NCBI RefSeq assembly: GCF_056746865.1
Contig: NZ_CM163382.1
Length of the DNA: 64,000 bases
Reading direction: 5' to 3' (one strand)
How positions within the stretch are numbered: the first letter of the stretch is position 1; the number at the start of each line of letters is the position of its first letter. The notes under the pieces were generated by a model. That model made no database searches and was not told the origin of the DNA. It saw nothing but the letters and a program-made list of their open reading frames with translations. Positions 14,254 to 64,000 of the stretch are shown here, in pieces. A program made the position numbers and the translations under genes.

Positions 14254-14676
14254 CTAATAAACCGGAATCGCCATCGCTCCATGTGCTAAACAGTATCGCA
14301 ACCAGTCCGCTAAAAACTGATTAATTTGATGCTTTTCGTCGCGTTGATGCAACTTTTTATTAGGATAATCATACCGCGCTTTGAAGCGAAAAATCTGCTG
14401 GCTTGAACACACTTCAGCCACCATCGCGTCATGATACAGACGCACCGTCATTGACGGAAGGCTCCAGTAACTGATCGCGGGCGCAGTCTGTTCTATTGTC
14501 ACCAGGGTAGTGTATCGGGTCGATTCCACAATCGTCAGCCGATATTGTGCGTTTGCCACCTGATAGCTTACAGTTTCGCCGGGTGCGTCATTGCGCGGTA
14601 ACAAACGGCGCAATTGTGAAAAGTTCATCTCGCACAGGCGCATCATTTCAGGAAAGTCAGGTGTGTAACGCTTCAT
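14254..14676 (-). CDS. yqiB: DUF1249 protein YqiB
   Basis: 140 aa ORF in nudF-yqiB-cpdA-yqiA operon arrangement. Confidence 0.8.
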
Positions 14677-15306
14677 TTATGCCCACTCATTTTTTAACGC
14701 TTGATGATGCAGCTGCAGCCATTGCAAAGCGATGACCGACGCTGCGTTGTCGATTTTCCCCTCTTCTACCCACTGGTATGCCTGTTCCCGGCTTACCACA
14801 TGAACGCGAATATCTTCGTTTTCATCAGCCAGACCGTGAATACCGCTTGCGGTCGTGGCGTCCACTTCGCCCACCATAATTGACGAACGCTCACTGGTGC
14901 CCCCCGGGCTTGCCAGGAAACTTAACACCGGTTTGGTCCGTTTGACTATCAGTCCCGCCTCTTCAATCGCTTCGCGACGGGCAACATCTTCCACACTTTC
15001 ACCCTCTTCAATCATCCCGGCAACCATCTCCAGTAGCCAGGGGGTTTCGCTGGTGTCGTACGCGGCAATCCGAATCTGCTCAATCAGCACAACTTCATCA
15101 CGCACTGGGTCAAAGGGTAGCAAGACTGCGGCGTGACCGCGCTCAAAAATTTCCCGCCGTACCTCATGACTCATTTGCCCGTTGAATAGACGATGACGAA
15201 ATCTATAAAGATCTAATGAAAAAAAGCCGCGATAAAGTGTTTCTCGTGCAATAATTTCTACATCGTTTTTGCCAAATGTAACGGGCAGGTTGTCTGGCTT
15301 AAGCAT
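14677..15306 (-). CDS. nudF: ADP-ribose pyrophosphatase (Nudix)
   Basis: 209 aa; Nudix box [23 protein letters not shown]. Confidence 0.9.
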
Positions 15307-49878: not shown

Positions 49879-50003
49879 ATTTACTCCTTTCTAACATCAC
49901 CAGGAAAAGTATAACGGATTGAAAATACATTGTTTATAAAAACAGCAGGCGCGCGGTAATGGCTGGATTGCGACACGGAGTTACTTTATAATCCGCTACC
50001 ATG

Positions 50004-50078
50004 GCCCCTTAGCTCAGTGGTTAGAGCAGGCGACTCATAATCGCTTGGTCGTTGGTTCAAACCCAACAGGGGCCACCA
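50004..50078 (+). tRNA. ileX: tRNA-Ile (anticodon CAU; lysidine-modified Ile2 type)
   Basis: GGCCCCTTAGCTCAGTGGTTAGAGCAGGCGACTCATAATCGCTTGGTCGTTGGTTCAAACCCAACAGGGGCCACCA; cloverleaf with CAT anticodon in loop CTCATAA; encoded CCA. Confidence 0.9.
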
Positions 50079-50176: not shown

Positions 50177-51022
50177 TCAGATGGCTGATAATTGTCCCGG
50201 ATAACGCTTTGCAATGATGTCATTTAGCCGATCAACCAGTTCTGGTTTTCTGAATGTGATATGCGCGGAGCCCTTCTTAAAGTATCTGATGCTGAACATC
50301 TCATCTTCATAGCTCTCTTTACCCTGAACAGACTGAATGTGCTCATCCAGACGAATAGTGATGTTTTCCCGATTGTCGGGGATTGGTTTACCGCTGAACA
50401 GGTGCAACATTCTTTCCAGATCGGCGAGTCGGTCAGCCTGTTGTCCGGTGATAAGATGAAATCCCCACCGGTCCCATCTCACCAGATTGTTGACGATAAT
50501 TTTACTGCCAAATTTACAGGGGCAATTGGTTTTGTAATTCCAGTTCAGCCCTCTGAAGACGTTGATCACCCCTCGCTCAAACACCTCATCCTTATTCTGG
50601 TGCAGTTGTTCAAATGTGCTCAGGATGTTCGCTTCGCTGATTTCCGGAAAATTATCGTACTCCAGTGACCGGTACCATGTCTCACGGGCCTGTGCATCCA
50701 TTAAGGAAAGCATCCCGGAACGTTGCATCAAGTCACGCCAGATTTCACGATCGAGATTGTGTGTGATGGCTTTCATTGCCGTTTCAGGTTTCTCCATGAG
50801 CCAGCAGCCACAGCGAAAATCCTGTTTCATCGCCCAGTCCAGTGCGGTTTTACCGCCAATACTTTCTGTCATTGCTGAGATTTCAGCCAGTTGCCGGATA
50901 AGTGTGTTGATTTGCAGCAGTGTACTTTTTCGTACAGCCAGAATGTGGCGGATACTGGTTGAGCAGATAACGTCCGTATGCCCGTTGACTACTTCCGGAC
51001 GGGAGGCTGTGATATCAGACAT
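50177..51022 (-). CDS. Uncharacterised island protein (281 aa; possibly DUF4942 family)
   Basis: Long clean ORF at tRNA-proximal end of island; family assignment from memory only. Confidence 0.55.
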   Translation of the reverse strand: MSDITASRPEVVNGHTDVICSTSIRHILAVRKSTLLQINTLIRQLAEISAMTESIGGKTALDWAMKQDFRCGCWLMEKPETAMKAITHNLDREIWRDLMQRSGMLSLMDAQARETWYRSLEYDNFPEISEANILSTFEQLHQNKDEVFERGVINVFRGLNWNYKTNCPCKFGSKIIVNNLVRWDRWGFHLITGQQADRLADLERMLHLFSGKPIPDNRENITIRLDEHIQSVQGKESYEDEMFSIRYFKKGSAHITFRKPELVDRLNDIIAKRYPGQLSAI

Positions 51023-51118
51023 AATCGATATTCCTTTTTGCAGATAAATGAAAACGCCAGCCCTGTTCAGGCTGGCGTCAGTGGAATGAAGTCTGGTGAG
51101 TGAGATGATGAGTGAAAC

Positions 51119-51316
51119 TCACCGGTTCGGGGGCTGAAGCTGCAGTTGGCGCAGGGTACGGATATCCTCCCTGGCCTGTTCAATACAGGACAACAGGGCT
51201 GTCGAATCCGTTTTATCCTCATCGTTGTCAAAGATAATTCCGGATTCACAGTCGATATTGTCCTGCAGCCACGCAATCAGAATATCCAGCGCTGTTTCCG
51301 TGGTTAATGATTTCAT
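51119..51316 (-). CDS. Small uncharacterised island protein (65 aa from MKSLTTET; possibly DUF957)
   Basis: ORF 51119..51361 trimmed to internal Met to avoid overlap with upstream ORF; acidic small protein. Confidence 0.4.
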   Translation of the reverse strand: MKSLTTETALDILIAWLQDNIDCESGIIFDNDEDKTDSTALLSCIEQAREDIRTLRQLQLQPPNR

Positions 51317-51327
51317 GTTGTTTCTGG

Positions 51328-51816
51328 TTACCAGTCGAAAGTGGGTAAATCCGGCAGACACCCGGCGCTGGCATCCAGATGAATAAGACTGACGCCATAA
51401 CGCCGGATGAGAGTGACAACCAGACGGCGGAAGGTTTTTGACAGGCCCAGACGTTTAAGGTGTAGCACCGGATACGACAAAGCATCGGTACGTAACAGAT
51501 ACCCTCTGCCTGTAAAATGAATCCATTCTGATTCGCCGGTGTCATTCGTCTGATGCGACAGCGAGTACAGCCAGGTGTTGTCCGTTTCCGTGATATGTGC
51601 GGTACTGCAGCGTATGCCGGTAAGGGCAGCAAATGGTGGCGTGCAGTCTGCTGAGGTCCGGTCAGATTCATCAACAACACGAAGGGAGTAGCCGTTATCG
51701 CAGATCATGTTAATCAGTTCAGCGAGATTAACACCATCAATGTCAACGACAATTCGCCCCATATTCAGTGCCTGTACGTTAACGCTGTCGGCTTCCAGTG
51801 TCAGGGTCAGTTGCAT
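51328..51816 (-). CDS. YeeW-like uncharacterised protein downstream of cbtA
   Basis: 162 aa ORF immediately after cbtA stop, position equivalent to yeeW in CP4-44. Confidence 0.45.
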
Positions 51817-52190
51817 CGTTTCGACTCCTGATGCTTACCCAGGGTAATGTTATTTACCGTTCTGTAATTGTCGCGGGTCATCAGGCCGGTTGCCCGGCGA
51901 GCCCGGAGAATATCAATACTGTTTATTAACTGAGAGCGGGTACAGGCGCTGAATCCCGGCTGGTCGGTACGTACCAGTGCGTATTTTTCAACGAGAAAGT
52001 TCACCGCATCGCACAGTGAAATGCCTGCCTCAATATGCTGCTCAATCACACGTTCATCAGCGAACGGTGTGTCATTCAGCGTAAGGCCGTAATGCTGGTC
52101 CAGCAGTCGGGTGAGCAGTGTCTGCCAGATTTCAACCGGAGACGGGCGTGAACTGGCCGCCTGCCCGGGTAATACAGGTAATGTTTTCAT
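51807..52190 (-). CDS. cbtA: CbtA/YeeV-family type IV toxin (cytoskeleton-binding toxin)
   Basis: ORF trimmed to [23 protein letters not shown]...; family conserved sequence. Confidence 0.8.
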
Positions 52191-52279
52191 ACTGAAGATT
52201 TTCCTGATATGCAGAGATGAAAAATGGAAAAGTGGCGTGGTGAAAGCACCAGGCCGGAGCAGAAGGTTATTCTGGATAG

Positions 52280-52648
52280 TTACCTTTTCGTTTCGGGCGT
52301 CGGATAAACAGCCATATAAACGTAGCCACAACTGCCGAGGGTGTCGGCTTCGCAGGTCAGCCCTTTTGCATACAGCGTGACGGTATGCTGATGGCGGGAA
52401 TTCAGTTCACCGCTGGTGAGCATGAGTTCCAGTTGTTTCATCAGCAGCGGAAAGGCCTGGTCCAGGTGGTACGAATCCGCGTCGCTGAACCGGCCTCTGA
52501 TACCGGCGCGGTCGGCAAGGTAATGCAACCGGTTGCCCTCCTGCACCAGACGGGCGCCAAAACAAGGTGTCACGGTACAGGGCAGCCCCCACCAGGGGCG
52601 GTCGTGATTGTCATCGGGATGCGTTGTCCCGGGCAGTGTGTCTGACAC
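52280..52648 (-). CDS. cbeA: CbeA/YeeU-family antitoxin
   Basis: 122 aa; [48 protein letters not shown]. Confidence 0.8.
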
Positions 52649-52727
52649 AATAAAATCCTCACAGAAAATTGGTTAAGAATGGTCCGGTGGTGGCGATAAT
52701 TCTGCTCTTCTGAATGCCCTTCCGGAC

Positions 52728-52949
52728 TCAGTTCAGGGTGACGCTCATCAGCCGGACATACGGACCAAAACTGTCCTTACGGCGTTCTGCAAACACAGCC
52801 AGCACACCGGGAATATCCTGCACTTCACGGCCGGTATATGTATCCGTGCTACCGTGCCAGCGGTATTTGCCGGTACAGAACGGAAAAAGACGGGATGCCG
52901 GATGTTGTTGGTGAATACGCATGGCTTCACCACGGGTGATGATTTTCAT
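52728..52949 (-). CDS. YeeT/DUF987 protein
   Basis: 73 aa; MKIITRGEAMRIHQQHPASRLFPF; conserved partner upstream of cbeA. Confidence 0.7.
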   Translation of the reverse strand: MKIITRGEAMRIHQQHPASRLFPFCTGKYRWHGSTDTYTGREVQDIPGVLAVFAERRKDSFGPYVRLMSVTLN

Positions 52950-53017
52950 GGTGTGATACCTCTTAAGACAGAAGATAAAAGTGAAAACAGGTGTGATGTG
53001 GTGGTGACGGTGACGGG

Positions 53018-53494
53018 TTAAAGCAGACCGTGTTCCGCAAAGGAGAAAACCTGGCTGCCACCGACTATCAGATGGTCCGGTACCCGGATATCCACCAGGC
53101 CCAGTGCCTGTACCAGACGTTCCGTGATAAGGCGGTCTGCCTTGCTGGGTGTGACTTCACCGGACGGGTGATTGTGTGCCAGCACCACGGCAGCGGCATT
53201 GTGGTACAGGGCACGTTTAATCACTTCCCGGGGATGGACTTCCGTGCGGTTGATGGTGCCGGTGAAGAGGGTTTCACCGGCAATCAGCTGATTCTGGTTG
53301 TTCAGATACAGCACCCGGAACTCTTCCCGCTCCAGTCCCGCCATGTTCAGAATCAGCCACTCCCGTGCCGCATGCGTGGAGGTGAAGGCCACGCCGGGTT
53401 CATGAAGATGGCGGTCCAGGGTTTTCAGGGCCCGCTGAATGAGGCTGCGCTCGCCGGGCGTCATCTCTCCGGGCAGAAAAGAAAGCTGTTGCAT
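53018..53494 (-). CDS. RadC-like JAB-domain protein (YeeS/YfjY family)
   Basis: 158 aa; JAMM motif HNHPSGEVTPSKAD. Confidence 0.85.
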   Translation of the reverse strand: MQQLSFLPGEMTPGERSLIQRALKTLDRHLHEPGVAFTSTHAAREWLILNMAGLEREEFRVLYLNNQNQLIAGETLFTGTINRTEVHPREVIKRALYHNAAAVVLAHNHPSGEVTPSKADRLITERLVQALGLVDIRVPDHLIVGGSQVFSFAEHGLL

Positions 53495-53508
53495 TGTTCC
53501 GGCCCCTT

Positions 53509-53994
53509 TCAGTCAATGATGCGCATAATGGCGTTGCATTCCGGATGCTGCAGGGCGTAATCCCGCAGCCGGTAATAATGGACCGTCATGGCATAACACT
53601 CCGTACGACAGGCATGATGGCTGTACGTCATCAGACAGGCAGCAATGCCGGCGGCTTCCGGGCTCATTTCAGCGCGGTTACCGTTCATGGCACTGAACAG
53701 TACCCATGTTTCGTCATCATCGTCATCCGGTTCGGGTGCCATAAATGCCCCGCCGTTGTTCAGGGTGTACAGATTCCAGATACCACCACAGTAGTCTTCG
53801 CACAGACGATCCATCCAGCCGAAGACACGGGGCTCCAGGGTCACCCACTGTGGAATGAGGCCAAAATGCTGCGGCCAGAAGCTGATGCGCTGTTCATCAG
53901 GGACGAGGGTGGCAACCAGTTGAGGCGGGTTATTCTCTGATACAGCGGTTACGGAAACAGAAGGTGTGGTGGAATTATGCAAAACGGTTGTCAT
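53509..53994 (-). CDS. Antirestriction protein (ArdB/KlcA/YfjX family)
   Basis: 161 aa; family-typical C-terminal region; position upstream of radC-like gene as in CP4-57 yfjX. Confidence 0.7.
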   Translation of the reverse strand: MTTVLHNSTTPSVSVTAVSENNPPQLVATLVPDEQRISFWPQHFGLIPQWVTLEPRVFGWMDRLCEDYCGGIWNLYTLNNGGAFMAPEPDDDDDETWVLFSAMNGNRAEMSPEAAGIAACLMTYSHHACRTECYAMTVHYYRLRDYALQHPECNAIMRIID

Positions 53995-54084
53995 GAGATT
54001 ATTCCTTATAAAAAGTAAATGAATGGAAGAAGTCGCGGGGCAGGGACGGACATGAGTCAGAACTGCGCTTTCAGGGAAAAGGCA

Positions 54085-54903
54085 TCAGCGCATACTCTTC
54101 AGCAGTGTTTCTGCCATCACCCACAATGCGCGATTGAGCTTAATGTCGGTGTCGATGCTGTGAATGGCACGGGTATGGATACGTTTTCCTCTGGCACTGC
54201 GACCGGAAATCCCGCCTTTCAGCATATTCTCCTGGATGGTCTGATAAGCACTCCACAGGTCCTTACCGTAATCCTCCCGGCGTCGCGGTGTCAGAATGTC
54301 AGCAGCGGTGACGGGCTGATGTTCGTCACCATAACGGTAAGTCAGTGCCGCCTGTGCCAGCGCCTGGCGTGCCGGTGGCGGCAGGACCAGCGACTGCATG
54401 GCATCACGCTTCTCCTCAATCCGGTCAAAAACCCCCACCACCTCGTAAGCCCCTTCGATAACTTTCTCCACTACGTCTCCCCGGTGTGGAACACGCACTT
54501 CCCCCAGAGACTGACCACAGACGCATCCGTTCTGGCAGACGAACCTGAAGTAACCCGGCAGCATCTGGTAGCTGGAGGTACCGTCATGGGAGTTCAGCAG
54601 GATGATTTCAGGGACATGTTGTCCGTTTATCTCCCCGTCACGGCGCAGACGCAGCATGTGTTTGGTGTATCCCCGGCGGCCCGGGTCGCGCACGCGGGTC
54701 TGGCAGGCGAAGAATGGCTGGAAGCCTTCCCGCTGCAGGCTTTCCAGCACGGTGATGGTGGGGATCCAGGTATAGTTCTCGCTTCTGGATGTGTGTTTCT
54801 CTTCCCCGAATACGCTGGGGACGACCTGCATCAGTTCTTCACGGGTTAAGGGGCGGTCACGGCGTATCTGGTTCGCATAACCAAAACGACTGGCTAATCG
54901 CAT
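54085..54903 (-). CDS. DUF932 protein (YfjQ/YafZ family)
   Basis: 272 aa; MRLASRFGYANQIRRDRPLTREELMQVVPSVFGEEKH. Confidence 0.75.
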   Translation of the reverse strand: MRLASRFGYANQIRRDRPLTREELMQVVPSVFGEEKHTSRSENYTWIPTITVLESLQREGFQPFFACQTRVRDPGRRGYTKHMLRLRRDGEINGQHVPEIILLNSHDGTSSYQMLPGYFRFVCQNGCVCGQSLGEVRVPHRGDVVEKVIEGAYEVVGVFDRIEEKRDAMQSLVLPPPARQALAQAALTYRYGDEHQPVTAADILTPRRREDYGKDLWSAYQTIQENMLKGGISGRSARGKRIHTRAIHSIDTDIKLNRALWVMAETLLKSMR

Positions 54904-55229: not shown

Positions 55230-58076
55230 TCAGAAAGTCACATTCAGCGTGGCCTGACCGTTATAGCCTTCAGCGCTGTTGCCGCTGACACTGTGGGCAT
55301 AACCGGCCTGAACGCCCAGAGTGATATTTTCCCGGACACGGGCTTCCAGTCCGGCCTGCAGGTCCAGTGACGTGCCATTCTGTGACGGTGAGAACGTCAT
55401 GTTACTGCCGGCTTCAGCTGTACCCATGCTCATGTCACCCCGGGAGCTGAAAGTGCGGATAACAGAAGGCTGTACCCACCAGTTCACCGGCAGTTCACTC
55501 ACACGGTGTTTTGTACTGTCGCGCAGAGTGTCACGGGATGAGGTGCCTTCGCCAAAGGTCATATCGTTGTGGCTGCCCAGACGGAAGCCGGCACGCACAT
55601 GTTGTGTACTGCCATGCCCGAACTTCACATAACCGGCGTTATCCTGGCCGTCATCCAGGGAGAGCCCCTGCCAGGTGTACTGCAGTTGTGGCTCCAGCAT
55701 CAGGTTGTCAGTGATACTGAAGGGCAGACCGGTTTCCAGTGAGCCCAGCCAGCCCCAGCCCCGGGCGCGGAAGTCGTTATTGTCCGATGACGCTTTCATG
55801 CTGTGGCGGGTTCCCTGTGCCACAATGTCAGCCCACAGGCCGGAGGACGTGTGTGTCAGATTCAGGTATCCGCCCAGGCTGCCGGCATCATCCCGGACTG
55901 TGCCGGCGCGGGAACCGTCATCATCCTTAACATCAACGGAAGAATGACCTGCAGCACCATACACCCCTGTCGTCAGAGACATACCTGCAACCTCTGTTCT
56001 CAGCAGGTCACCCTCCAGACGGACGAAGCCATAGCTGCCGCTGCTTTCCGGCGTGGCTCCACGGGCAATACCGCCGTTGTTATCGTGACCGAGATGACCG
56101 CCCTGAATGCTGAGACGGACGCTGTTATTTTCACCGTTTACACCGGTCTGATGGCTGCGGGAGCCTGCCAGAATCCGGTCATAGTCCATTGCCTGTGTCA
56201 GCATGGAGGCATACAGGGGGACTTCAGCACGATAAGCATTTTCACTGCGCAGGTACCAGTCTTCATCGCTGTCACGGTTCAGGGTGTAGTTAAAGGCACC
56301 GGCCTGAAGCGGGCGACTCAGGGCAAACGCACCTTCTTCTGTGGTGGCACCATTCTGTGCATCCACAACCCGGATACCCTGTCCGGAGGTTGCCACCCCG
56401 AGGTTACTGTTTCCGACATTTGTGAACGCAAGCCAGGTTTTGCCGGTTGCCTGACCACCATTAATCACCAGCTGGTCAGAGGCATTGCTGCCATCAAGGC
56501 GAACACGCATATTGATGGTGCCACCCTGACCGGTGAGGTTACTGGTTGTCAGTTTATGGAACGTTACCGGGGCGTTGCCTTTTGCAACAGCACGGCTCAG
56601 TATGGCATCCGGTGTTGTCTGATTGTCAAAGTAAATCTCCCCTGCGTTAACAATATCGCCGGTACTGACCACATCACCATTCAGTACCATGCTGGCGCCT
56701 TTACTGAGCTGTGTTCTGCCACTCAGACTTCCCCCGGCAGCCAGCATCAGTGTTCCACGATGTCCGACAGTGGTGTTGCCAGCCTGTCCCCCGGCATTAA
56801 CCGTAAAGCTGCCGCCATTTTCCAGCAGCAGGCCGCTGGCCTGACCGGATATGCCATCAATACTGAACTTACCGCTGGCATTGGTCCCCTCAACAGTGGC
56901 ACCACTGTCTGCAATCAGGGCACCACCGGATGTCATGGTGACACCTGTCGCCTTACCACCGGCAGACACTGCCAGGGTTCCGCCGTCATCCACCCGTGTT
57001 TTCTGCGCTGAATGGCCCTCCAGTACATCCAGGCGACCGCCGGACTCCAGAACAACACCGTCAGCCTTACCGTTTTCCACCGTGAAATTCCCCAGACGGT
57101 TGCTGCCGGTGACGGTTGCCGCCGTACTGGTGACCAGTGCGCCGCCCTGCTTCAGGGTGACATTCGTGGCTGTACCACCGGCGTTCACCTGCAGTTTGCC
57201 TTTCTGGTTAACGGTGGAGAAATCCGCCAGACCACCTTCCTTGATAATCTGCCAGCCGTCACTGTTTACAACAGTGCCAGACGCCGTACCGCCGTTGTGC
57301 ACATACTGGTACCCCCCATTCAGCGTGGTATCCAGTGCGTGACCATGTACAGTCTGGTCGCCGCCGGCATAAACCACAGTGGTATTTGCCGTTCCTTCAG
57401 CAGCCACAATCTGACGACCATTTTTATTGATGGTGGTGCGTACGGCATCTCCGTAGACGGTCTGCCCGGTATCACCATTTTCTGCATCCGGTCCCCCTTC
57501 CGCGCCGGTATTCACAACCGTGTCGGTTGCCATTGCGCCGGATTTGACGGCCTGCCAGCCCTTCTCATTAATGACGGTACCCGTTGCAATCCCGCCTTCA
57601 TGTATCCACTGCTCACCGCCGTTCAGAGTGGTGTTCACTGCCTGCCCCTGAAGGCTCTGTCCGCCTCCGGCACTGATAACCGTGTCTGAAACGCTTCCTC
57701 CGGCATTCACTCTCTGAAGACCACCACCGGTGACAGTAGTGTTGTTGGCGGTACCGCCATTTTGTATCCATTGGCCGCCGGTATTCGCCTCGTTATCCGG
57801 CCCATACTCCAGCCCGGTACTGATGGTCATTCCGTTGGCCGTACCGAAGACAATCTGGTTGTCATGATTTGTCAGTGTTCCGCCGCTCACGGTTTCTCCC
57901 GCCTGTACGACCGTGTCAGCAGCCAGTACCGGGACTGACGTGACAGCAGCAAGAGACAGCGCAACCGCCACACCGGTGCGTTTTCCCCGTGAGCGCGCCA
58001 GTTCGGAAGCCACCACCAGGGTGCCCGTAATGTGATTCCATACCAGCCTGTAGCTGGTGTTCAGATGTCGTTTCAT
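55230..58076 (-). CDS. flu: Antigen 43 self-associating autotransporter adhesin (short ~950 aa variant)
   Basis: ORF trimmed to MKRHLNTSYRLVWNHITGTLVVASELARSRGKR extended signal peptide; beta-helical passenger repeats; C-terminal beta-barrel ending ...YNGQATLNVTF. Confidence 0.9.
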   Translation of the reverse strand: MKRHLNTSYRLVWNHITGTLVVASELARSRGKRTGVAVALSLAAVTSVPVLAADTVVQAGETVSGGTLTNHDNQIVFGTANGMTISTGLEYGPDNEANTGGQWIQNGGTANNTTVTGGGLQRVNAGGSVSDTVISAGGGQSLQGQAVNTTLNGGEQWIHEGGIATGTVINEKGWQAVKSGAMATDTVVNTGAEGGPDAENGDTGQTVYGDAVRTTINKNGRQIVAAEGTANTTVVYAGGDQTVHGHALDTTLNGGYQYVHNGGTASGTVVNSDGWQIIKEGGLADFSTVNQKGKLQVNAGGTATNVTLKQGGALVTSTAATVTGSNRLGNFTVENGKADGVVLESGGRLDVLEGHSAQKTRVDDGGTLAVSAGGKATGVTMTSGGALIADSGATVEGTNASGKFSIDGISGQASGLLLENGGSFTVNAGGQAGNTTVGHRGTLMLAAGGSLSGRTQLSKGASMVLNGDVVSTGDIVNAGEIYFDNQTTPDAILSRAVAKGNAPVTFHKLTTSNLTGQGGTINMRVRLDGSNASDQLVINGGQATGKTWLAFTNVGNSNLGVATSGQGIRVVDAQNGATTEEGAFALSRPLQAGAFNYTLNRDSDEDWYLRSENAYRAEVPLYASMLTQAMDYDRILAGSRSHQTGVNGENNSVRLSIQGGHLGHDNNGGIARGATPESSGSYGFVRLEGDLLRTEVAGMSLTTGVYGAAGHSSVDVKDDDGSRAGTVRDDAGSLGGYLNLTHTSSGLWADIVAQGTRHSMKASSDNNDFRARGWGWLGSLETGLPFSITDNLMLEPQLQYTWQGLSLDDGQDNAGYVKFGHGSTQHVRAGFRLGSHNDMTFGEGTSSRDTLRDSTKHRVSELPVNWWVQPSVIRTFSSRGDMSMGTAEAGSNMTFSPSQNGTSLDLQAGLEARVRENITLGVQAGYAHSVSGNSAEGYNGQATLNVTF

Positions 58077-58293
58077 CAGCTTTTCCTTACAGAGGGTGAA
58101 TAAAAAAGCCGGTACCCACAAATGTGGATACCGGCAGGTACAAAACAGCATGGTCAGATAAAGTGGTTTTTCCCGGACATAAATGCTTCCCCTCTCTCAT
58201 CCGCCAGAGAAGTATCAGTCCGTTGTGTGCAATTCCGTTCTGCATGATGAAGAGATTCAACTGCCTTTTCGCAGGCCATTAACCACTATAAAC

Positions 58294-58329
58294 GATCGAT
58301 AGTAACGATCGATACCTGTTTTATTGATC
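58294..58329. promoter_or_regulatory. Three clustered Dam GATC sites (Ag43 phase-variation switch / OxyR operator)
   Basis: GATC at 58294, 58307 and 58326 within 36 bp (AACGATCGATAGTAACGATCGATACCTGTTTTATTGATCG) ~220 bp upstream of Ag43 start. Confidence 0.7.
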
Positions 58330-58448
58330 GTTTTATTCTATTGATTGCAAGGCGGTCACGCAAGAGAAACAGGAGGATCATGAGGTGTTTGTGTCATGTT
58401 TTCAGTTGGTTAACGCAATGTAATCAGGCATTTCCCCTGGCAGACTGT

Positions 58449-59321
58449 TCAGAAGAAAATCCAGTTCCATACAGCGCGGGCAACAGAGACCACCGAGTCA
58501 CGGACGGCACGCAGAACCGTGCGTGCAACAGAGGCAATACAGACGCTCTCCGCCGTGTCAAATATCCGGTCCACCGCACCGGTAAACTGTTCACGGGCCT
58601 GAGACCGGACAGATTCCGTGCGCAGCTCGTCCTGCAGGCGGGTCATCAGGGGACTGGCGGCATGGTCGGGAAGCGCTGTCATGAGCGCACTGACCAGCGT
58701 ATCCAGTTCCCAGCCGGTGCAGGCCGATACGGCCACAACCGGATGTACGGGTCGGAACAGCCGGAATACCGCATCTGTTTTCTCACGAATGTTCTGTGCC
58801 TGTGCGGGAGAAGGCTGAATGCCGGCCATATCCCATTCATGGCAGGGCTCCGTTTTGTCGGCCTGCGTCACCACAAACAGTACCCGCTGATGTCCCCGGT
58901 GCAGGATGTGTCGCCAGAAATACTCATCCACAGACAGGGCACGGTCATCGGCTTTAATCAGCCACAGTACCAGGTCAAGTTCAGGCAGAATGTTACGGTA
59001 CAGGGCTTCATACTCTGCATCCCTGTCCCGGCTCTCGCCCACCCCGGGCAGGTCAGTGATAATCATGCTGTGACCGTGGCCACTCAGACGGAAGCGCTGC
59101 ACTTCCCGGGTGCCGGCGTGAACATCACTGACCGGTGTGACTTCCCCCTGAAACAGCGCATTACAGAGTGAGGATTTACCGGCCCCGCTTTTACCCATAA
59201 TGCCAATCACGGGTTCGTGGCTGGTGAGTTTACGCAGATGTTCCAGGATGTGACGGGAAAGCGAATAAGGCAGGGAGGAGAGCGGTTTTTCAATTGCCTC
59301 AATGGCATCAGACGGATTCAT
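58449..59321 (-). CDS. YfjP/YeeP/YkfA-family GTPase
   Basis: P-loop GKSGAGKSS, G3 DLPG, G4 TQADK; start taken at MNPSDAIEAIEK (ORF extends to 59360). Confidence 0.75.
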   Translation of the reverse strand: MNPSDAIEAIEKPLSSLPYSLSRHILEHLRKLTSHEPVIGIMGKSGAGKSSLCNALFQGEVTPVSDVHAGTREVQRFRLSGHGHSMIITDLPGVGESRDRDAEYEALYRNILPELDLVLWLIKADDRALSVDEYFWRHILHRGHQRVLFVVTQADKTEPCHEWDMAGIQPSPAQAQNIREKTDAVFRLFRPVHPVVAVSACTGWELDTLVSALMTALPDHAASPLMTRLQDELRTESVRSQAREQFTGAVDRIFDTAESVCIASVARTVLRAVRDSVVSVARAVWNWIFF

Positions 59322-59584
59322 ATATGTATTCCCGGTGAAAAAAGACAAAACCCCGCGCACCGGAAAGGTGGCGGGGGATTCACGGAGATAATATCTGTCT
59401 GAAATTATTTAGAATGCACCTGGTGCACTGCAAAGGAAAGGCAGTATTCCGTTCCTCCTCCTTGTCGTGAATACCCCAGGTATCTCACAATGTACACCGA
59501 CTTACTCCGGGGCTGCCTGAACCACAAGATTGCTGTAGAATTGCCCCCAATGATTCAGGTCCAAACCAGGCAAATGGATTAAAA

Positions 59585-61141
59585 ATGACAAGTATTCAAC
59601 AACGAGCAGAACTGCACCGCCAGATATGGCAAATTGCCAATGATGTCAGAGGTTCTGTTGACGGATGGGATTTTAAGCAATACGTTCTGGGCGCACTTTT
59701 CTACCGTTTTATCAGCGAAAATTTTTCCAGTTATATTGAAGCCGGTGATGACAGTATCTGTTATGCGAAACTGGATGACAGCGTAATTACTGATGACATT
59801 AAAGACGATGCCATCAAAACTAAAGGCTACTTCATCTACCCCAGTCAGCTTTTCTGCAACGTAGCGGCGAAAGCAAATACTAATGACAGGCTGAATGCAG
59901 ATTTAAACAGCATCTTCGTTGCTATCGAAAGTTCTGCTTACGGTTATCCTTCAGAAGCTGACATCAAAGGTTTGTTTGCTGATTTCGATACCACCAGTAA
60001 CCGCCTGGGTAACACCGTTAAGGATAAAAATGCCCGCCTGGCTGCGGTTCTGAAAGGGGTTGAAGGGTTAAAACTTGGTGACTTCAACGAACATCAGATT
60101 GACCTGTTCGGTGATGCCTATGAGTTCCTGATTTCTAACTATGCGGCAAATGCCGGTAAGTCAGGCGGTGAGTTCTTTACACCGCAGCACGTCTCCAGGC
60201 TGATTGCACAACTGGCTATGCACGGGCAGACCAGCGTTAACAAAATCTACGACCCGGCAGCGGGTTCCGGCTCACTGTTGTTGCAGGCGAAAAAACAGTT
60301 TGATAACCACATCATCGAAGAAGGCTTTTTCGGTCAGGAAATCAACCATACGACCTATAACCTGGCGCGTATGAACATGTTTTTGCACAACATCAACTAC
60401 GACAAGTTTGATATCAAGCTGGGTAATACACTGACTGAGCCACACTTCAGAGATGAAAAACCGTTTGATGCCATCGTTTCTAACCCGCCGTATTCGGTGA
60501 AATGGATTGGCAGCGATGACCCGACGCTGATTAACGATGAACGTTTTGCCCCGGCTGGCGTTCTGGCCCCCAAATCAAAAGCTGACTTCGCCTTTGTACT
60601 ACATGCGCTGAACTATCTTTCTGCCAAAGGTCGCGCCGCGATTGTCTGCTTCCCGGGTATTTTTTACCGTGGCGGCGCGGAGCAGAAAATCCGTCAGTAT
60701 CTGGTCGATAATAACTATGTCGAAACCGTGATTTCACTGGCACCGAACCTGTTCTTTGGCACCACCATTGCCGTCAATATTCTGGTGCTGTCTAAACATA
60801 AAACGGATACCAAAGTTCAGTTTATTGACGCCAGCGAACTGTTCAAAAAAGAGACTAATAACAACATCCTGACCGATGCTCATATCGAACAGATTATGCA
60901 GGTATTTGCCGGCAAGGAAGATGTTGCTCATCTGGCGAAATCTGTCACGTTTGAGACTGTTGTCGCGAATGACTATAACCTGTCGGTGAGCAGCTATGTG
61001 GAAGCGAAAGATAACCGCGAAGTGGTGGACATTGCTCAGCTCAACGCCGAGCTGAAATCTACTGTCGCCAGGATTGACCAGCTTCGCAGGGATATTGATG
61101 CCATCGTCGCTGAAATTGAAGGCGAGGAGCAGGAGGCATGA
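59585..61141 (+). CDS. hsdM: Type I restriction-modification methyltransferase subunit HsdM (type IC, EcoR124-like)
   Basis: 518 aa; SAM-binding DPAAGSGS and catalytic NPPY motif; overlaps hsdS by 4 nt. Confidence 0.9.
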
Positions 61142-62343
61142 GTAGCGTGAACTTCTTGGAAAAGCTGTTGGATGGCGTTGAGGTCGAGTGGAAGACACTT
61201 GGGCAAACTTGCAAAATTGAAACAGGAAAGCTTAATGCGAATGCGGCTGTTGATGATGGAGAGTATATGTTCTTCACGACAGCCAAAGAGACAAGCAAAA
61301 TTGATAAATTCCGCTGGGATACAGAGGCATTGCTGATTGCAGGCAATGCGAATGTTGGTGAGGTGAAGCATTACATCGGCAAGTTTGAGGCTTATCAGCG
61401 CACCTATGTTCTGACAAATTTCGACGAAAATGTAAGTGTTAGATTTTTGTATTTTGTGCTTAGCCATAGCCTGAAGAAATATCTCGAGGAAAGAACAAAT
61501 AGCGCGGCAATGACATATATCGTGCTATCAACCTTAGAGAATTTCCCTATCCCCATCCCCTGCCCAGGCAACCCCCAAAAATCCCTTGCCATCCAGTCTG
61601 AAATCGTTCGGATTCTGGATAAATTTACTGCACTTACCGCTGAGCTTACCGCTGAGCTTAACATGCGTAAAAAACAGTACAACTACTATCGCGACCAGTT
61701 GTTGAGTTTTAAAGAGGGTGAGGTTGAGTGGAAGACTTTGGGGGAAATTGGAGATTTTACATATGGATATGCAGCCAAAGCCATGGATTCAGGAGATGCC
61801 CGTTTCGTGAGAATTACTGACATAAATAAAGACGGGAAGCTATCGAAAGAAAACCCAATGTACGTTGAATTAAATGAGGAAAATGAGAAATATACCTTAG
61901 ACAAAAATGATTTACTCATGGCAAGAACTGGGGCAACCTTTGGTAAAACAATGATTTTTGAAGAAGATTATCCAGCAGTATACGCTGGTTTTTTAATAAA
62001 GTTGAACCTAAATAAAACGATTATTAATGCCAAATATTACTGGCACTTTGCACAAAGTGATTTTTTTTGGGAACAGGCTAATAAATTAGTATCTGGTGGT
62101 GGGCAACCACAGTTTAATGCTAATGCACTGAAACAAGTCAGAGTACCTATTCCATACCCATCTCACCCTCAAAAATCTTTAGACGAACAGGGGCGTATTG
62201 TGGATATTCTGGATAAGTTTGATGCAATCGCAGCTTCCATCACCGAAGGTCTCCCGCGTGAAATCGAGTTACGTCAAAAACAATACGAATACTATCGTGA
62301 TTTACTGCTCAGTTTCCCAAAACCTGAAACTGTCAGTAAATAA
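61138..62343 (+). CDS. hsdS: Type I R-M specificity subunit HsdS (type IC)
   Basis: 401 aa; two TRDs separated by central conserved region with TAELTAEL repeat and conserved KKQYxYYRDxLLSF blocks after each TRD. Confidence 0.85.
61627..61659 (+). repeat. Tandem 12-bp repeat (ACCGCTGAGCTT x2, preceded by partial ACTGCACTT) encoding TAEL-TAEL in hsdS
   Basis: Direct reading of hsdS codons 164-174: [11 protein letters not shown]. Confidence 0.8.
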
Positions 62344-62464
62344 TTGACCATTGCTACCGACCGGGCCTCCTTAACATCCGGTCAGTATATAGACTATTTT
62401 TTACGCGCCGGAAGTCACTCTTAACGCCCTTCCGGCTCTTGCCAGGCGGCACAAAGGATGCGCT

Positions 62465-64000
62465 ATGACTCATCAAACACACACCATTGCTGAATCCAAT
62501 AACTTTATCGTCCTTGATAAGTACATCAAAGCTGAGCAAACAAGCGACAGCTACCAGAGCGAATCGGACCTGGAACGTGAACTGATTCAGGACCTGCGGA
62601 ATCAGGGTTATGAATTTATTTCCGTAAAATCACAGTCGGCAATGCTGTCTAATGTTCGGGAACAGCTTCAGAGCCTCAATGGTGTGATGTTTAATGACAG
62701 CGAGTGGCGGCGCTTCACGGAGCAGTATCTGGACAACCCCAGCGATGGTATTCTGGATAAAACCCGTAAAATCCATATCGACTATATCTGCGACTTTATT
62801 TTTGACGACGGGCGACTTGAGAACATCTATTTGATAGATAAAAAGAATCTCATGCGCAATAAGGTGCAGATTATCCAGCAGTTTGAACAGACGGGTTCTC
62901 ATGCTAACCGTTATGACGTCACGATCCTGGTTAATGGTTTACCGCTGGTGCAAATCGAACTAAAAAAACGCGGGGTGGCGATTCGTGAGGCTTTCAACCA
63001 GATACATCGTTACAGTAAAGAGAGTTTTAACAGCGAAAATTCCCTGTTTAAGTATCTGCAACTGTTTGTCATTTCTAACGGCACCGATACCCGTTATTTT
63101 GCCAACACGACAAAGCGCGATAAAAACAGTTTTGACTTCACCATGAATTGGGCGAAATCAGACAACACGCTGATTAAAGACCTCAAAGACTTTACCGCTA
63201 CCTTTTTCCAGAAACATACTCTGCTGAATGTTCTGGTGAACTACAGCGTTTTTGACAGTAGTCAGACGCTACTGGTGATGCGACCGTACCAGATTGCCGC
63301 CACCGAGCGCATTCTGTGGAAAATTAAGAGTTCCTTTACAGCGAAGAACTGGTCAAAACCGGAAAGCGGTGGGTATATCTGGCACACTACCGGTTCTGGT
63401 AAAACCCTCACCAGCTTTAAAGCCGCGCGTCTGGCAACAGAGCTGGACTTTATTGATAAAGTCTTCTTTGTGGTCGACAGGAAAGACCTCGATTACCAGA
63501 CCATGAAGGAATATCAGCGTTTTTCGCCAGACAGCGTCAACGGCTCGGAAAATACCGCAGGCCTTAAACGAAATCTGGATAAGGACGATAACAAAATTAT
63601 CGTCACTACTATTCAGAAACTCAATAACCTGATGAAAGCAGAAAGCGACCTGCCTGTATATAATCAGCAAGTGGTGTTTATATTTGATGAATGCCACCGC
63701 AGCCAGTTTGGAGAAGCGCAGAAAAACCTGAAGAAGAAATTCAAACGCTATTATCAGTTTGGTTTTACCGGCACCCCTATTTTCCCGGAAAACGCCTTAG
63801 GCTCAGAAACAACCGCCAGCGTATTTGGCCGTGAATTGCATTCGTATGTGATTACCGATGCGATTCGTGACGAAAAAGTGCTCAAATTCAAGGTGGACTA
63901 CAACGATGTGCGGCCACAGTTTAAGTCTTTAGAGACAGAAACTGACGAGAAAAAACTGAGTGCGGCTGAAAATCAGCAGGCGTTTCTTCACCCCATGCGT
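62465..64000 (+). CDS. hsdR: Type I restriction endonuclease subunit HsdR (type IC), 5' portion only, truncated by window end
   Basis: In-frame translation [20 protein letters not shown]...; helicase motif I TGSGKT and motif II DECH; open to window end (not in ORF track because no stop). Confidence 0.9.

Follow-up and report, generated by a model that had tools for sequence, protein, structure and literature searches.

What is a GTPase gene doing between an adhesin gene and a restriction–modification (R-M) system? The locus that raises this question lies in a stretch of 64,000 nucleotides of contig NZ_CM163382.1 (assembly GCF_056746865.1), which is referred to here, at its full length, as the window. 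The gene (58449–59321) is intact and encodes a TRAFAC GTPase of about 290 amino acids, which belongs to the YeeP type within the YfjP/YkfA/YeeP ('NgrB') family. A first-pass annotation of the window had read a maintenance or defence role from the position of the gene between the adhesin and the R-M system. Comparison of gene contexts, drawn from contigs encoding family members and from annotated records, shows that the GTPase is a backbone gene of its island and stands between two variable cargo slots, the R-M genes hsdMSR and the autotransporter gene Ag43 being the cargo. The positional argument fails because both neighbours are cargo, although it is still plausible that the gene serves the island itself in maintenance or conflict. 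Positions 58300–59600 are 100% identical to Escherichia coli CFSAN061769 (NZ_CP042969.1), in which RefSeq annotates the 'GTPase family protein' WP_112022224.1 at identical coordinates, and about 24.7 kb of other aligned window stretches show 98.8% identity to this strain. With these differences and a distinct hsdS, the window stems from a close relative of CFSAN061769 and not from that strain.

A backbone gene between two cargo slots

In four clades of the family (96%, 61%, 52% and 45% identity), on chromosomes and on IncHI1 plasmids, the GTPase opens the same co-directional right arm, in the order GTPase, DUF932, antirestriction protein, RadC/JAB, DUF987, CbeA antitoxin, CbtA toxin, DUF5983, DUF957 and DUF4942, with WYL/YfjR, YpjK or YfjS/T added in some clades. 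The opposite (left) arm of CP4-type elements carries AlpA, YfjI (DUF3987) and YfjJ/Gp2. The recurrence of the family in CP4-type islands, as first annotated, is borne out, and the coordinates in the window confirm that the gene is divergent from hsdM and has Ag43 and DUF932 on its other side.

59585..64000, plus strand: cargo slot 1, type I R-M system; hsdM 59585–61141, hsdS 61138–62343, hsdR from 62465, exiting the window
58449..59321, minus strand: YeeP-type GTPase coding sequence (CDS), 290 amino acids plus stop; ATG at 59321, stop codon to 58449
55230..58331, minus strand: cargo slot 2, Ag43/Cah autotransporter and its leader; Ag43 55230–58076, IS102/IsrC RNA 58095–58331
50177..54903, minus strand: rest of the right arm; DUF932 54085–54903, antirestriction protein 53509–53994, RadC/JAB 53018–53494
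right arm continued, minus strand: DUF987 52728–52949, YeeU/CbeA antitoxin 52280–52648, CbtA toxin 51807–52190
end of the right arm, minus strand: DUF5983 51328–51816, DUF957 51119–51316, DUF4942 50177–51022

Slot 1 holds hsdMSR in all 25 inspected contigs that carry the identical GTPase allele. Elsewhere its content differs: abpAB, yfjM and rnlAB in CP4-57; a nucleotidyltransferase–ThiF–JAB–SAVED operon on pNDM-CIT, which by annotation resembles a cyclic-oligonucleotide-based antiphage signalling system (CBASS); a methyltransferase–helicase–GIY-YIG set on pC240_1; and, in Citrobacter islands that do not differ in other respects, HNH with Dcm, a gene for a sheath initiator, a set of major facilitator superfamily transporter, hydrolase and LysR genes, or unknown genes. 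ATCC 25922, E. coli B and three further E. coli genomes of the sample have an empty slot, and there a hypothetical open reading frame (ORF) of 305 amino acids ends 84 bp upstream; this ORF (WP_000250228.1; 10106–11023 on the minus strand of locus L040) lies upstream of the GTPase in most inspected E. coli copies. Slot 2, between the GTPase and DUF932, contains Ag43/Cah in every inspected YeeP-type island, IrmA and others in E. coli B, and nothing in the yfjP–yfjQ and ykfA–yafZ pairs. The description of family members as Ag43-proximal thus holds for the YeeP-type clade and fails for K-12 yfjP and ykfA, the pNDM-CIT copy and the 61% and 45% clades, beside which Ag43 is missing.

A function linked to these neighbours, either in the control of Ag43 expression or secretion or in action together with HsdMSR, is very improbable. 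The gene does adjoin both Ag43 and hsdM in the window, and Ag43 comes next in every YeeP-type island inspected; however, four other clades have no Ag43 there, hsdM adjoins the GTPase in four of the 30 E. coli records of a spread sample, Ag43 has its own IS102/IsrC leader with GATC sites, and hsdM is transcribed divergently. The backbone position of the GTPase argues for a function that serves the element rather than for a swappable defence module.

Several further observations concern the cargo and the boundaries of the island. In E. coli O157:H7 TT12B (locus L041, 1461–5814), slot 2 additionally contains a dynamin-family protein of 795 amino acids, a protein of the RdcB family and a patatin-like phospholipase. 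Such an arrangement may account for chimeras among database proteins, for example P0001, which joins the N-terminus of a GTPase to a coiled-coil region. The core of hsdS, which encodes the target-recognition domains (window 61202–62236), is divergent from that of CFSAN061769 (22903–23883 of locus L001), with flanks that are 98.5–100% identical, and the product has 401 amino acids in the window and in other carriers of the identical allele and 383 in CFSAN061769. The sequences suggest a specificity swap within the R-M cargo. Between the GTPase stop and the Ag43 start, the Rfam match to IS102/IsrC RNA (74 bits, 58095–58331, minus strand) has GATC at 58294, 58307 and 58326, and these three closely spaced sites are the Dam/OxyR phase-variation switch of agn43.

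Homology to other islands stops about 95 nt upstream of the ATG, within the last ∼11 nt of the 305-amino-acid ORF (59406–59416). The rest of this ORF is gone from the window island, the left arm (integrase, AlpA, YfjI/J) is missing, and in the reference strain an element of the IS5 family comes after hsdR. The upstream proteins of about 300 amino acids in different clades show a faint mutual similarity (E of 1e-4 to 2e-5) and no family match. At the toxin end of the island, DUF4942 (50177–51022, minus strand) abuts a tRNA with a CAT anticodon, annotated as tRNA-Ile (50003–50078, plus strand), downstream of mug. Since the usual integrase-proximal end does not stand beside the tRNA, what remains of the island here has been rearranged or truncated.

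The coding sequence, its family and selection

The first-pass annotation had recognized a YfjP-family GTPase with intact G1, G3 and G4 motifs, and this assignment is confirmed; G2 and G5 are also present.

59169..59195, minus strand: G1/P-loop, GKSGAGKSS, residues 43–51
59103..59114, minus strand: G2/switch I, GTRE, with T71 and R72; aligns to TTR of Era
59034..59054, minus strand: G3/switch II, DLPGVGE, residues 90–96; hydrophobic Val at the position of Ras Q61
58938..58967, minus strand: family-specific box LWLIKADDRA, residues 119–128, between G3 and G4; W120 and R127 invariant
58854..58868, minus strand: G4, TQADK, residues 152–156; aligns to NKIDK of Era
58719..58730, minus strand: G5, VSAC, residues 198–201, with S199–A200; aligns to ISA of Era

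The family profile and the conservation figures are based on 52 full-length homologues with 28–61% identity. G43, G46, G48, K49, S50, D90, P92, G93, D116, W120 and R127 are invariant among them, T71, R72, E96, Q153, D155, K156 and S199 are nearly invariant, and T71, R72, E96 and D125 are each at least 90% conserved. In the profile alignment to Era, NQxDK of the family falls on NKxDK, CTR on the switch I TTR and VSA on ISA. The Gln at the canonical Lys position of G4 is a family-wide trait (consensus NQxDK/NQVDK) and no defect, and the hydrophobic residue that follows DxxG, at the position of the catalytic Gln, is family-wide too. All of the family-specific residues (GKxGxGKSS, CTR, DxPGxGE, LW..KADDRA, NQxDK and SA) are carried by the window GTPase, in which the LWLIKADDRA box may be a dimer-interface or arginine-finger region. 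An alternative GTG start at 59360, giving a longer ORF, would fall within the leader hairpin described below and is supported by no homologue.

The assignment lies far beyond chance: the GTPase matches Pfam MMR_HSR1 with E = 1.3e-14, and among 1.84 billion representative proteins 2039 relatives reach E ≤ 1e-3, with 155 of them at E ≤ 1e-30. Other E. coli copies are 96–99% identical to the window GTPase, K-12 YfjP shares 52% protein identity with it across the full length, as does the pNDM-CIT copy, a 291-amino-acid clade of Citrobacter, Klebsiella, Serratia and Yersinia is 61% identical, and further enterobacterial clades are 42–45% identical. The K-12 yeeP fragment has about 96% DNA identity to the window gene. 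Neighbours in AFDB50, with query-normalized template-modelling scores (TMq) of up to 0.99, are named YeeP, NgrB or GTPase family protein and are all uncharacterized. The gene and family are already catalogued, and the window copy is 96–100% identical to thousands of entries. For the genome collection, the pattern [TS]G[AV]GKSSLxN proved to be too generic, with two true relatives in 20 among the loci listed.

Of 5426 complete E. coli genomes, 4538 carry a CDS match with at least 90% DNA identity and 16% have none. Carriers have a median of two copies and a maximum of eight; 9711 of the 9716 places are chromosomal and five are on plasmids. An origin as a plasmid leading-region gene is weakened by this count and by the inspected plasmid copies, which lie within whole CP4-like modules (IncHI1). 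A phage origin was rejected: no family member was found among 50,697 phage records, and the matches to PHROGs were weak and generic only.

The first-pass annotation had named variable frameshifts across strains, that is, a nonfunctional remnant, as a result that would speak against a role. A decaying, functionless remnant of a cryptic element is exceedingly improbable. It is true that yeeP is truncated in K-12 lineages, in which the match covers 63% of the gene, that several large clusters are labelled 'partial' (for example, 206 amino acids in Shigella flexneri) and that neighbouring island genes are often frameshifted; many of the 'partial' clusters are probably contig-end artefacts, and some are real truncations. 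However, pairwise dN/dS (the ratio of nonsynonymous to synonymous substitution rates) is 0.10–0.30 wherever dS is unsaturated, the catalytic residues are invariant at 28–61% identity, 4071 of the 4538 carrier genomes (90%) retain a copy that spans 80% or more of the gene, the largest 90%-identity protein cluster is of 290 amino acids with 18,190 members, and the gene is intact in otherwise decayed islands. The idea of a remnant is largely refuted because the gene is under purifying selection. In the decaying island of E. coli E8 (locus L044, 3588–7708), JAB, DUF987, CbtA and DUF905 carry frameshifts or truncations and neither DUF932 nor the antirestriction gene survives, but the GTPase and Cah are still intact.

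Predicted fold and class of the GTPase

An AlphaFold2 model was obtained from the 52-sequence alignment with a mean predicted local distance difference test score (pLDDT) of 95 and a predicted template-modelling score (pTM) of 0.91. The model has a single G domain, N-terminal helices at residues 3–14 and 19–34, and C-terminal helices at 206–216, 219–228, 236–260 and 264–289. The predicted architecture is an Era-like G core embedded in a helical domain formed by two N-terminal and about five C-terminal helices. No family member was found among solved structures. In a Foldseek search against the PDB, the top matches were the full-length IRG proteins Irga6/IIGP1, Irgb6, Irgb10 and GM4951 (E of about 4e-9, TMq 0.55–0.58, 250–330 aligned columns), followed by GIMAP7 and Toc34, with Era ranked only after these. 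The nearest full-length folds are IRG, GIMAP and Toc34, together with the G domain plus neck of bacterial dynamins. The family profile reaches Irgb10 across positions 8–241 (2.7e-15) and Toc33 (6e-13), and among 19 divergent family members Pfam AIG1 matches 17 (at ≤1e-3, with a best value of 3.4e-11) and IIGP nine. On the model, the GTPase appears to resemble, in its build and probably in its way of working, a pared-down representative of the septin-like branch (IRG, GIMAP, Toc and dynamin); the family tests assign it to none of these families.

The use of an Era/EngB-like ribosome-associated GTPase by the island, to act on host ribosome assembly or translation, would suit the Pfam name '50S ribosome-binding GTPase' and the fact that the G domains of Era and EngA/Der are the best sequence matches. 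This explanation is improbable: every NCBIfam score lies far under its cut-off, neither a KH domain nor any other domain for RNA binding is present, the additional domain forms a helical bundle whose C-terminus is amphipathic, and over its full length the fold is matched by IRG, GIMAP, Toc and dynamin-like proteins instead of Era.

The C-terminal helix and tandem relatives

The last helix of the model coincides with a putative membrane-binding element.

58452..58532, minus strand: C-terminal amphipathic helix, residues 264–290 (helix 264–289 in the AlphaFold2 model), ending in AVWNWIFF

This tail is the most amphipathic 18-mer of its protein, with a hydrophobic moment of 0.70. The tails of the family lie at the median 97.5th percentile of the amphipathicity of their own protein, with a median net charge of +3 and a median of three aromatic residues in the final 12, and nearly all full-length homologues end in an aromatic/basic amphipathic helix (for example, ...LFGKFFG, ...SWIKNWF and ...KSIWKSFF). 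In some relatives a glycine zipper or an EcsC domain replaces the tail, and one relative has an N-terminal kinase-like region. These sequence features suggest that the C-terminal helix mediates membrane association.

Outside the Enterobacterales and island clades, two or three paralogous GTPases form tandem arrays (locus L025, 251–2104; L034, 1793–4720, and L052, 9435–12362; L037, 431–3706). This arrangement resembles the pattern of dynamin-like proteins, IRG and GIMAP, which form homo- or hetero-oligomers, and by analogy the tandem paralogues may do likewise. Some of the tandem-array GTPases have either an N-terminal extension of about 420 amino acids together with a glycine zipper or an EcsC domain at the C-terminus, and those of locus L052 lie near AAA_15/AAA_21 ATPase genes.

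A leader with a terminator-like hairpin

In the four clades, about 85 nt before the ATG accompany the GTPase regardless of the upstream gene.

59379..59403, minus strand: leader box TTCAGACAGATATTATCTCCGTGAA, conserved in the four clades; imperfect inverted repeat TTCAG-N15-(C)TGAA
59388..59393, minus strand: putative −10 element TATTAT in the leader-box region, with a putative −35 element TTCTAA at 59409–59414
59338..59376, minus strand: intrinsic-terminator-like element; hairpin CCCCGCCACC-TTTCC-GGTGCGCGGGG at 59351–59376, then T-run TTTTGTCTTTTTT at 59338–59350
59329..59333, minus strand: probable Shine–Dalgarno sequence GGGAA, 7 nt before the ATG, read from the sequence

The consensus of the box is TTCAGAyAkATATyAy...(C)TGAA. 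It corresponds to a site for the RpoD holoenzyme, 'TTGAAA-15-TATCAT', which has been reported upstream of both yfjP and ykfA (PMC3946193). A generic σ70 scan of 58000–59700 gave no promoter; the box was not flagged because its 15-nt spacer lies outside the 16–18 range of the scan. The hairpin has a folding free energy of −18.8 kcal/mol (z = −3.6) and was positive in the terminator scan. Across the clades, the architecture consists of a GC-rich hairpin of 9–11 bp, a T-run directly after it and then 18–20 nt with a Shine–Dalgarno sequence; counterparts of the window leader are found at 14620–14710 of locus L028, 10962–11052 (minus strand) of L047, 9914–10000 of L029 and 9900–10000 of L048. The stems themselves are unrelated between clades, being CCCCGCCACC... 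in the YeeP and 61% clades, ACGGCAGAACC... in YfjP/YkfA and GGCCATCC... in the 45% clade, and compensatory changes (CACC/GGTG, TTCC/GGAA and CTCC/GGAG) are seen within the YeeP and 61% clades. That the structure is kept despite unrelated stems points to a possible terminator or attenuator in the leader. With hsdM, rnlB, perR, CBASS-like genes or other cargo upstream, the box and hairpin still accompany the GTPase. In Rfam there is no family for the leader, the downstream IS102/IsrC being the sole match.

Proposed function

The reading that we prefer, with a confidence that falls somewhat short of even, is that of a membrane GTPase that self-associates in a GTP-dependent manner, is tightly gated and works on behalf of the island. 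The protein would bind GTP, as suggested by the retained guanine-specifying Asp of G4. It has no catalytic Gln, so hydrolysis would probably occur only after nucleotide-dependent self-association via the G interface, by analogy with the self-association-triggered hydrolysis of IRG, GIMAP, Toc34, septins and dynamins. The cues for activation by dimerization are the hydrophobic residue at the catalytic-Gln position, structural neighbours of the type of G proteins activated by dimerization (GAD) and the tandem paralogues found elsewhere. The aromatic/basic C-terminal amphipathic helix would attach the protein to the inner membrane, where it could act as a switch or a membrane remodeller for the island, in establishment, maintenance or competition with phages and rival elements, and not for the R-M system or the adhesin. 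Expression would be gated by the promoter/operator-like box and the terminator-like hairpin that follows it; given this hairpin in the leader, full-length mRNA would need read-through, possibly by protein-mediated antitermination. CP4-type islands encode an AlpA-family protein, and AlpA of Pseudomonas aeruginosa is an antiterminator.

Several points weigh against this reading. Backbone status is compatible with a defence function as well. By sequence the closest G domains are those of Era and EngA (E of 6e-25), and the likeness to IRG and dynamin therefore comes from helical extensions in a model that is itself a prediction, at a TM-score of only about 0.55. The C-terminal helix is packed with high confidence in the model, its release to the membrane being an assumption. 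The hairpin may instead terminate the upstream 305-amino-acid gene in the common arrangement. The reported RpoD promoter is the best match inside a binding region and has no mapped transcription start (PMC3946193). The sole deletion test that was found, of yfjP in a preprint on persister waking/resuscitation, gave no notable phenotype.

The same observations can be read in terms of a stand-alone anti-phage effector acting by abortive infection: a mini IRG/dynamin-like immune GTPase that, upon infection, would oligomerize on the inner membrane and damage or reseal it, after the fashion of Eleos (LeoABC) or DynA. The IRG/GIMAP-like fold of the model, the glycine-zipper fusions of distant homologues, which suggest a membrane effector, the several copies per genome and the slot next door, which is often filled by defence systems, are in keeping with it; tight leader control would fit a dangerous protein, and there are weak PADLOC matches to LeoBC (2.4e-8) and LeoA (1.6e-4). 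However, the LeoBC match covers the G domain only (residues 10–126 against a profile of 601 positions), the dynamin stalk and paddle are lacking, the GTPase belongs to no PADLOC system, and the gene is a fixed part of the backbone while the surrounding defence genes vary. No phage phenotype was found in a literature search, and we regard this effector as rather unlikely.

Returning to a membrane GTPase that serves the island, its most far-reaching form is a conjecture that is more doubtful still: the YfjP family would be a mobile-element-borne bacterial counterpart of the membrane-acting IRG/GIMAP immune GTPases, a set of minimal oligomerizing machines driven by GTP, kept silent behind the leader terminator, induced by antitermination (for example, by an AlpA-family protein) and acting on the membrane during phage attack, transfer or rivalry between elements. 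If this conjecture is true, over 80% of E. coli genomes would carry an island-encoded conflict function of a new and very widespread class, and the IRG/GIMAP lineage would have a prokaryotic link that ties mobile elements to the evolutionary roots of eukaryotic immune GTPases.

Significance

Annotations of the GTPase run to thousands of genomes, and the names of its K-12 paralogues go back decades; it still ranks among the most widespread E. coli island genes without a known function. That no function had been assigned, as first annotated, agrees with our literature search, in which no functional study of YfjP, YeeP, YkfA or NgrB was found. The predicted fold class, the architecture of backbone and slots, and the putative leader terminator are new here, and the misleading association of the GTPase with Ag43 and R-M is removed. 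As a gene between two cargo slots the GTPase provides a landmark for mining defence cargo, and the leader terminator provides a handle on its regulation. As a sequence feature the GTPase is real but ordinary, and its modest interest comes from the open question and these three handles.

Comparison with known systems

The closest relatives of the window gene are the K-12 genes of the same family, YfjP (CP4-57), YkfA (CP4-6) and the pseudogene YeeP (CP4-44), which have the same length, G motifs and leader architecture. In yfjP–yfjQ and ykfA–yafZ the GTPase comes first, before DUF932, in the same type of island as in the window. The window gene is the intact counterpart of the truncated K-12 yeeP, and the YeeP type differs in having Ag43 between the GTPase and DUF932.

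Of the housekeeping GTPases, Era, EngA and EngB align with the window GTPase in all five G motifs, whereas its C-terminal domain is different. For Era, the score with NF000908 is 50.2 bits (cut-off 237) and that with TIGR00436 is 39 (cut-off 116), and Pfam finds no KH domain; for EngA/Der, TIGR03594 gives 47.1 against 306.7, with a single G domain; for EngB/YihA, TIGR03598 gives 38.1 against 124.45. Unlike these proteins, the window GTPase is island-borne, multicopy and missing from 16% of E. coli.

The bacterial dynamin-like proteins (IniA, LeoA of Eleos LeoABC, BDLP, DynA and Campylobacter DLP1/2) occur as tandem paralogue pairs, as do distant relatives of the GTPase. The window GTPase has no stalk, trunk or paddle, is less than half as long and matches them in sequence within the G domain only; no Leo partner genes adjoin it, which places it outside dynamin/Eleos.

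Among the AIG1/GIMAP and Toc34/Toc33 ('paraseptin') GTPases, Toc33 and Toc34 are matched both by the family profile and by Foldseek. Pfam AIG1 matches most of the divergent relatives and gives only E = 0.0096 on the window GTPase, in which the invariant R127 lies between G3 and G4. GIMAPs bear C-terminal amphipathic or hydrophobic membrane elements.

The IRG proteins (Irga6/IIGP1, Irgb6 and Irgb10) likewise have helices on both the N- and the C-terminal side of the G domain, which together make up a single helical domain, and the resemblance in fold is real but partial. The IRG P-loop is likewise GxxGxGKSS, and IRGs are membrane-acting GTPases that are activated by dimerization. However, IRG proteins have about 400 amino acids, whereas the window GTPase has about 290 and a much smaller helical domain, with an identity of 17–22% and a TM-score of about 0.55; G4 is NQxD in the family and TKxD in IRG; and Pfam IIGP gives E = 0.012 over residues 24–104 only, which is below significance and leaves the GTPase outside the IRG family. 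The window GTPase is, moreover, bacterial and borne by a mobile element.

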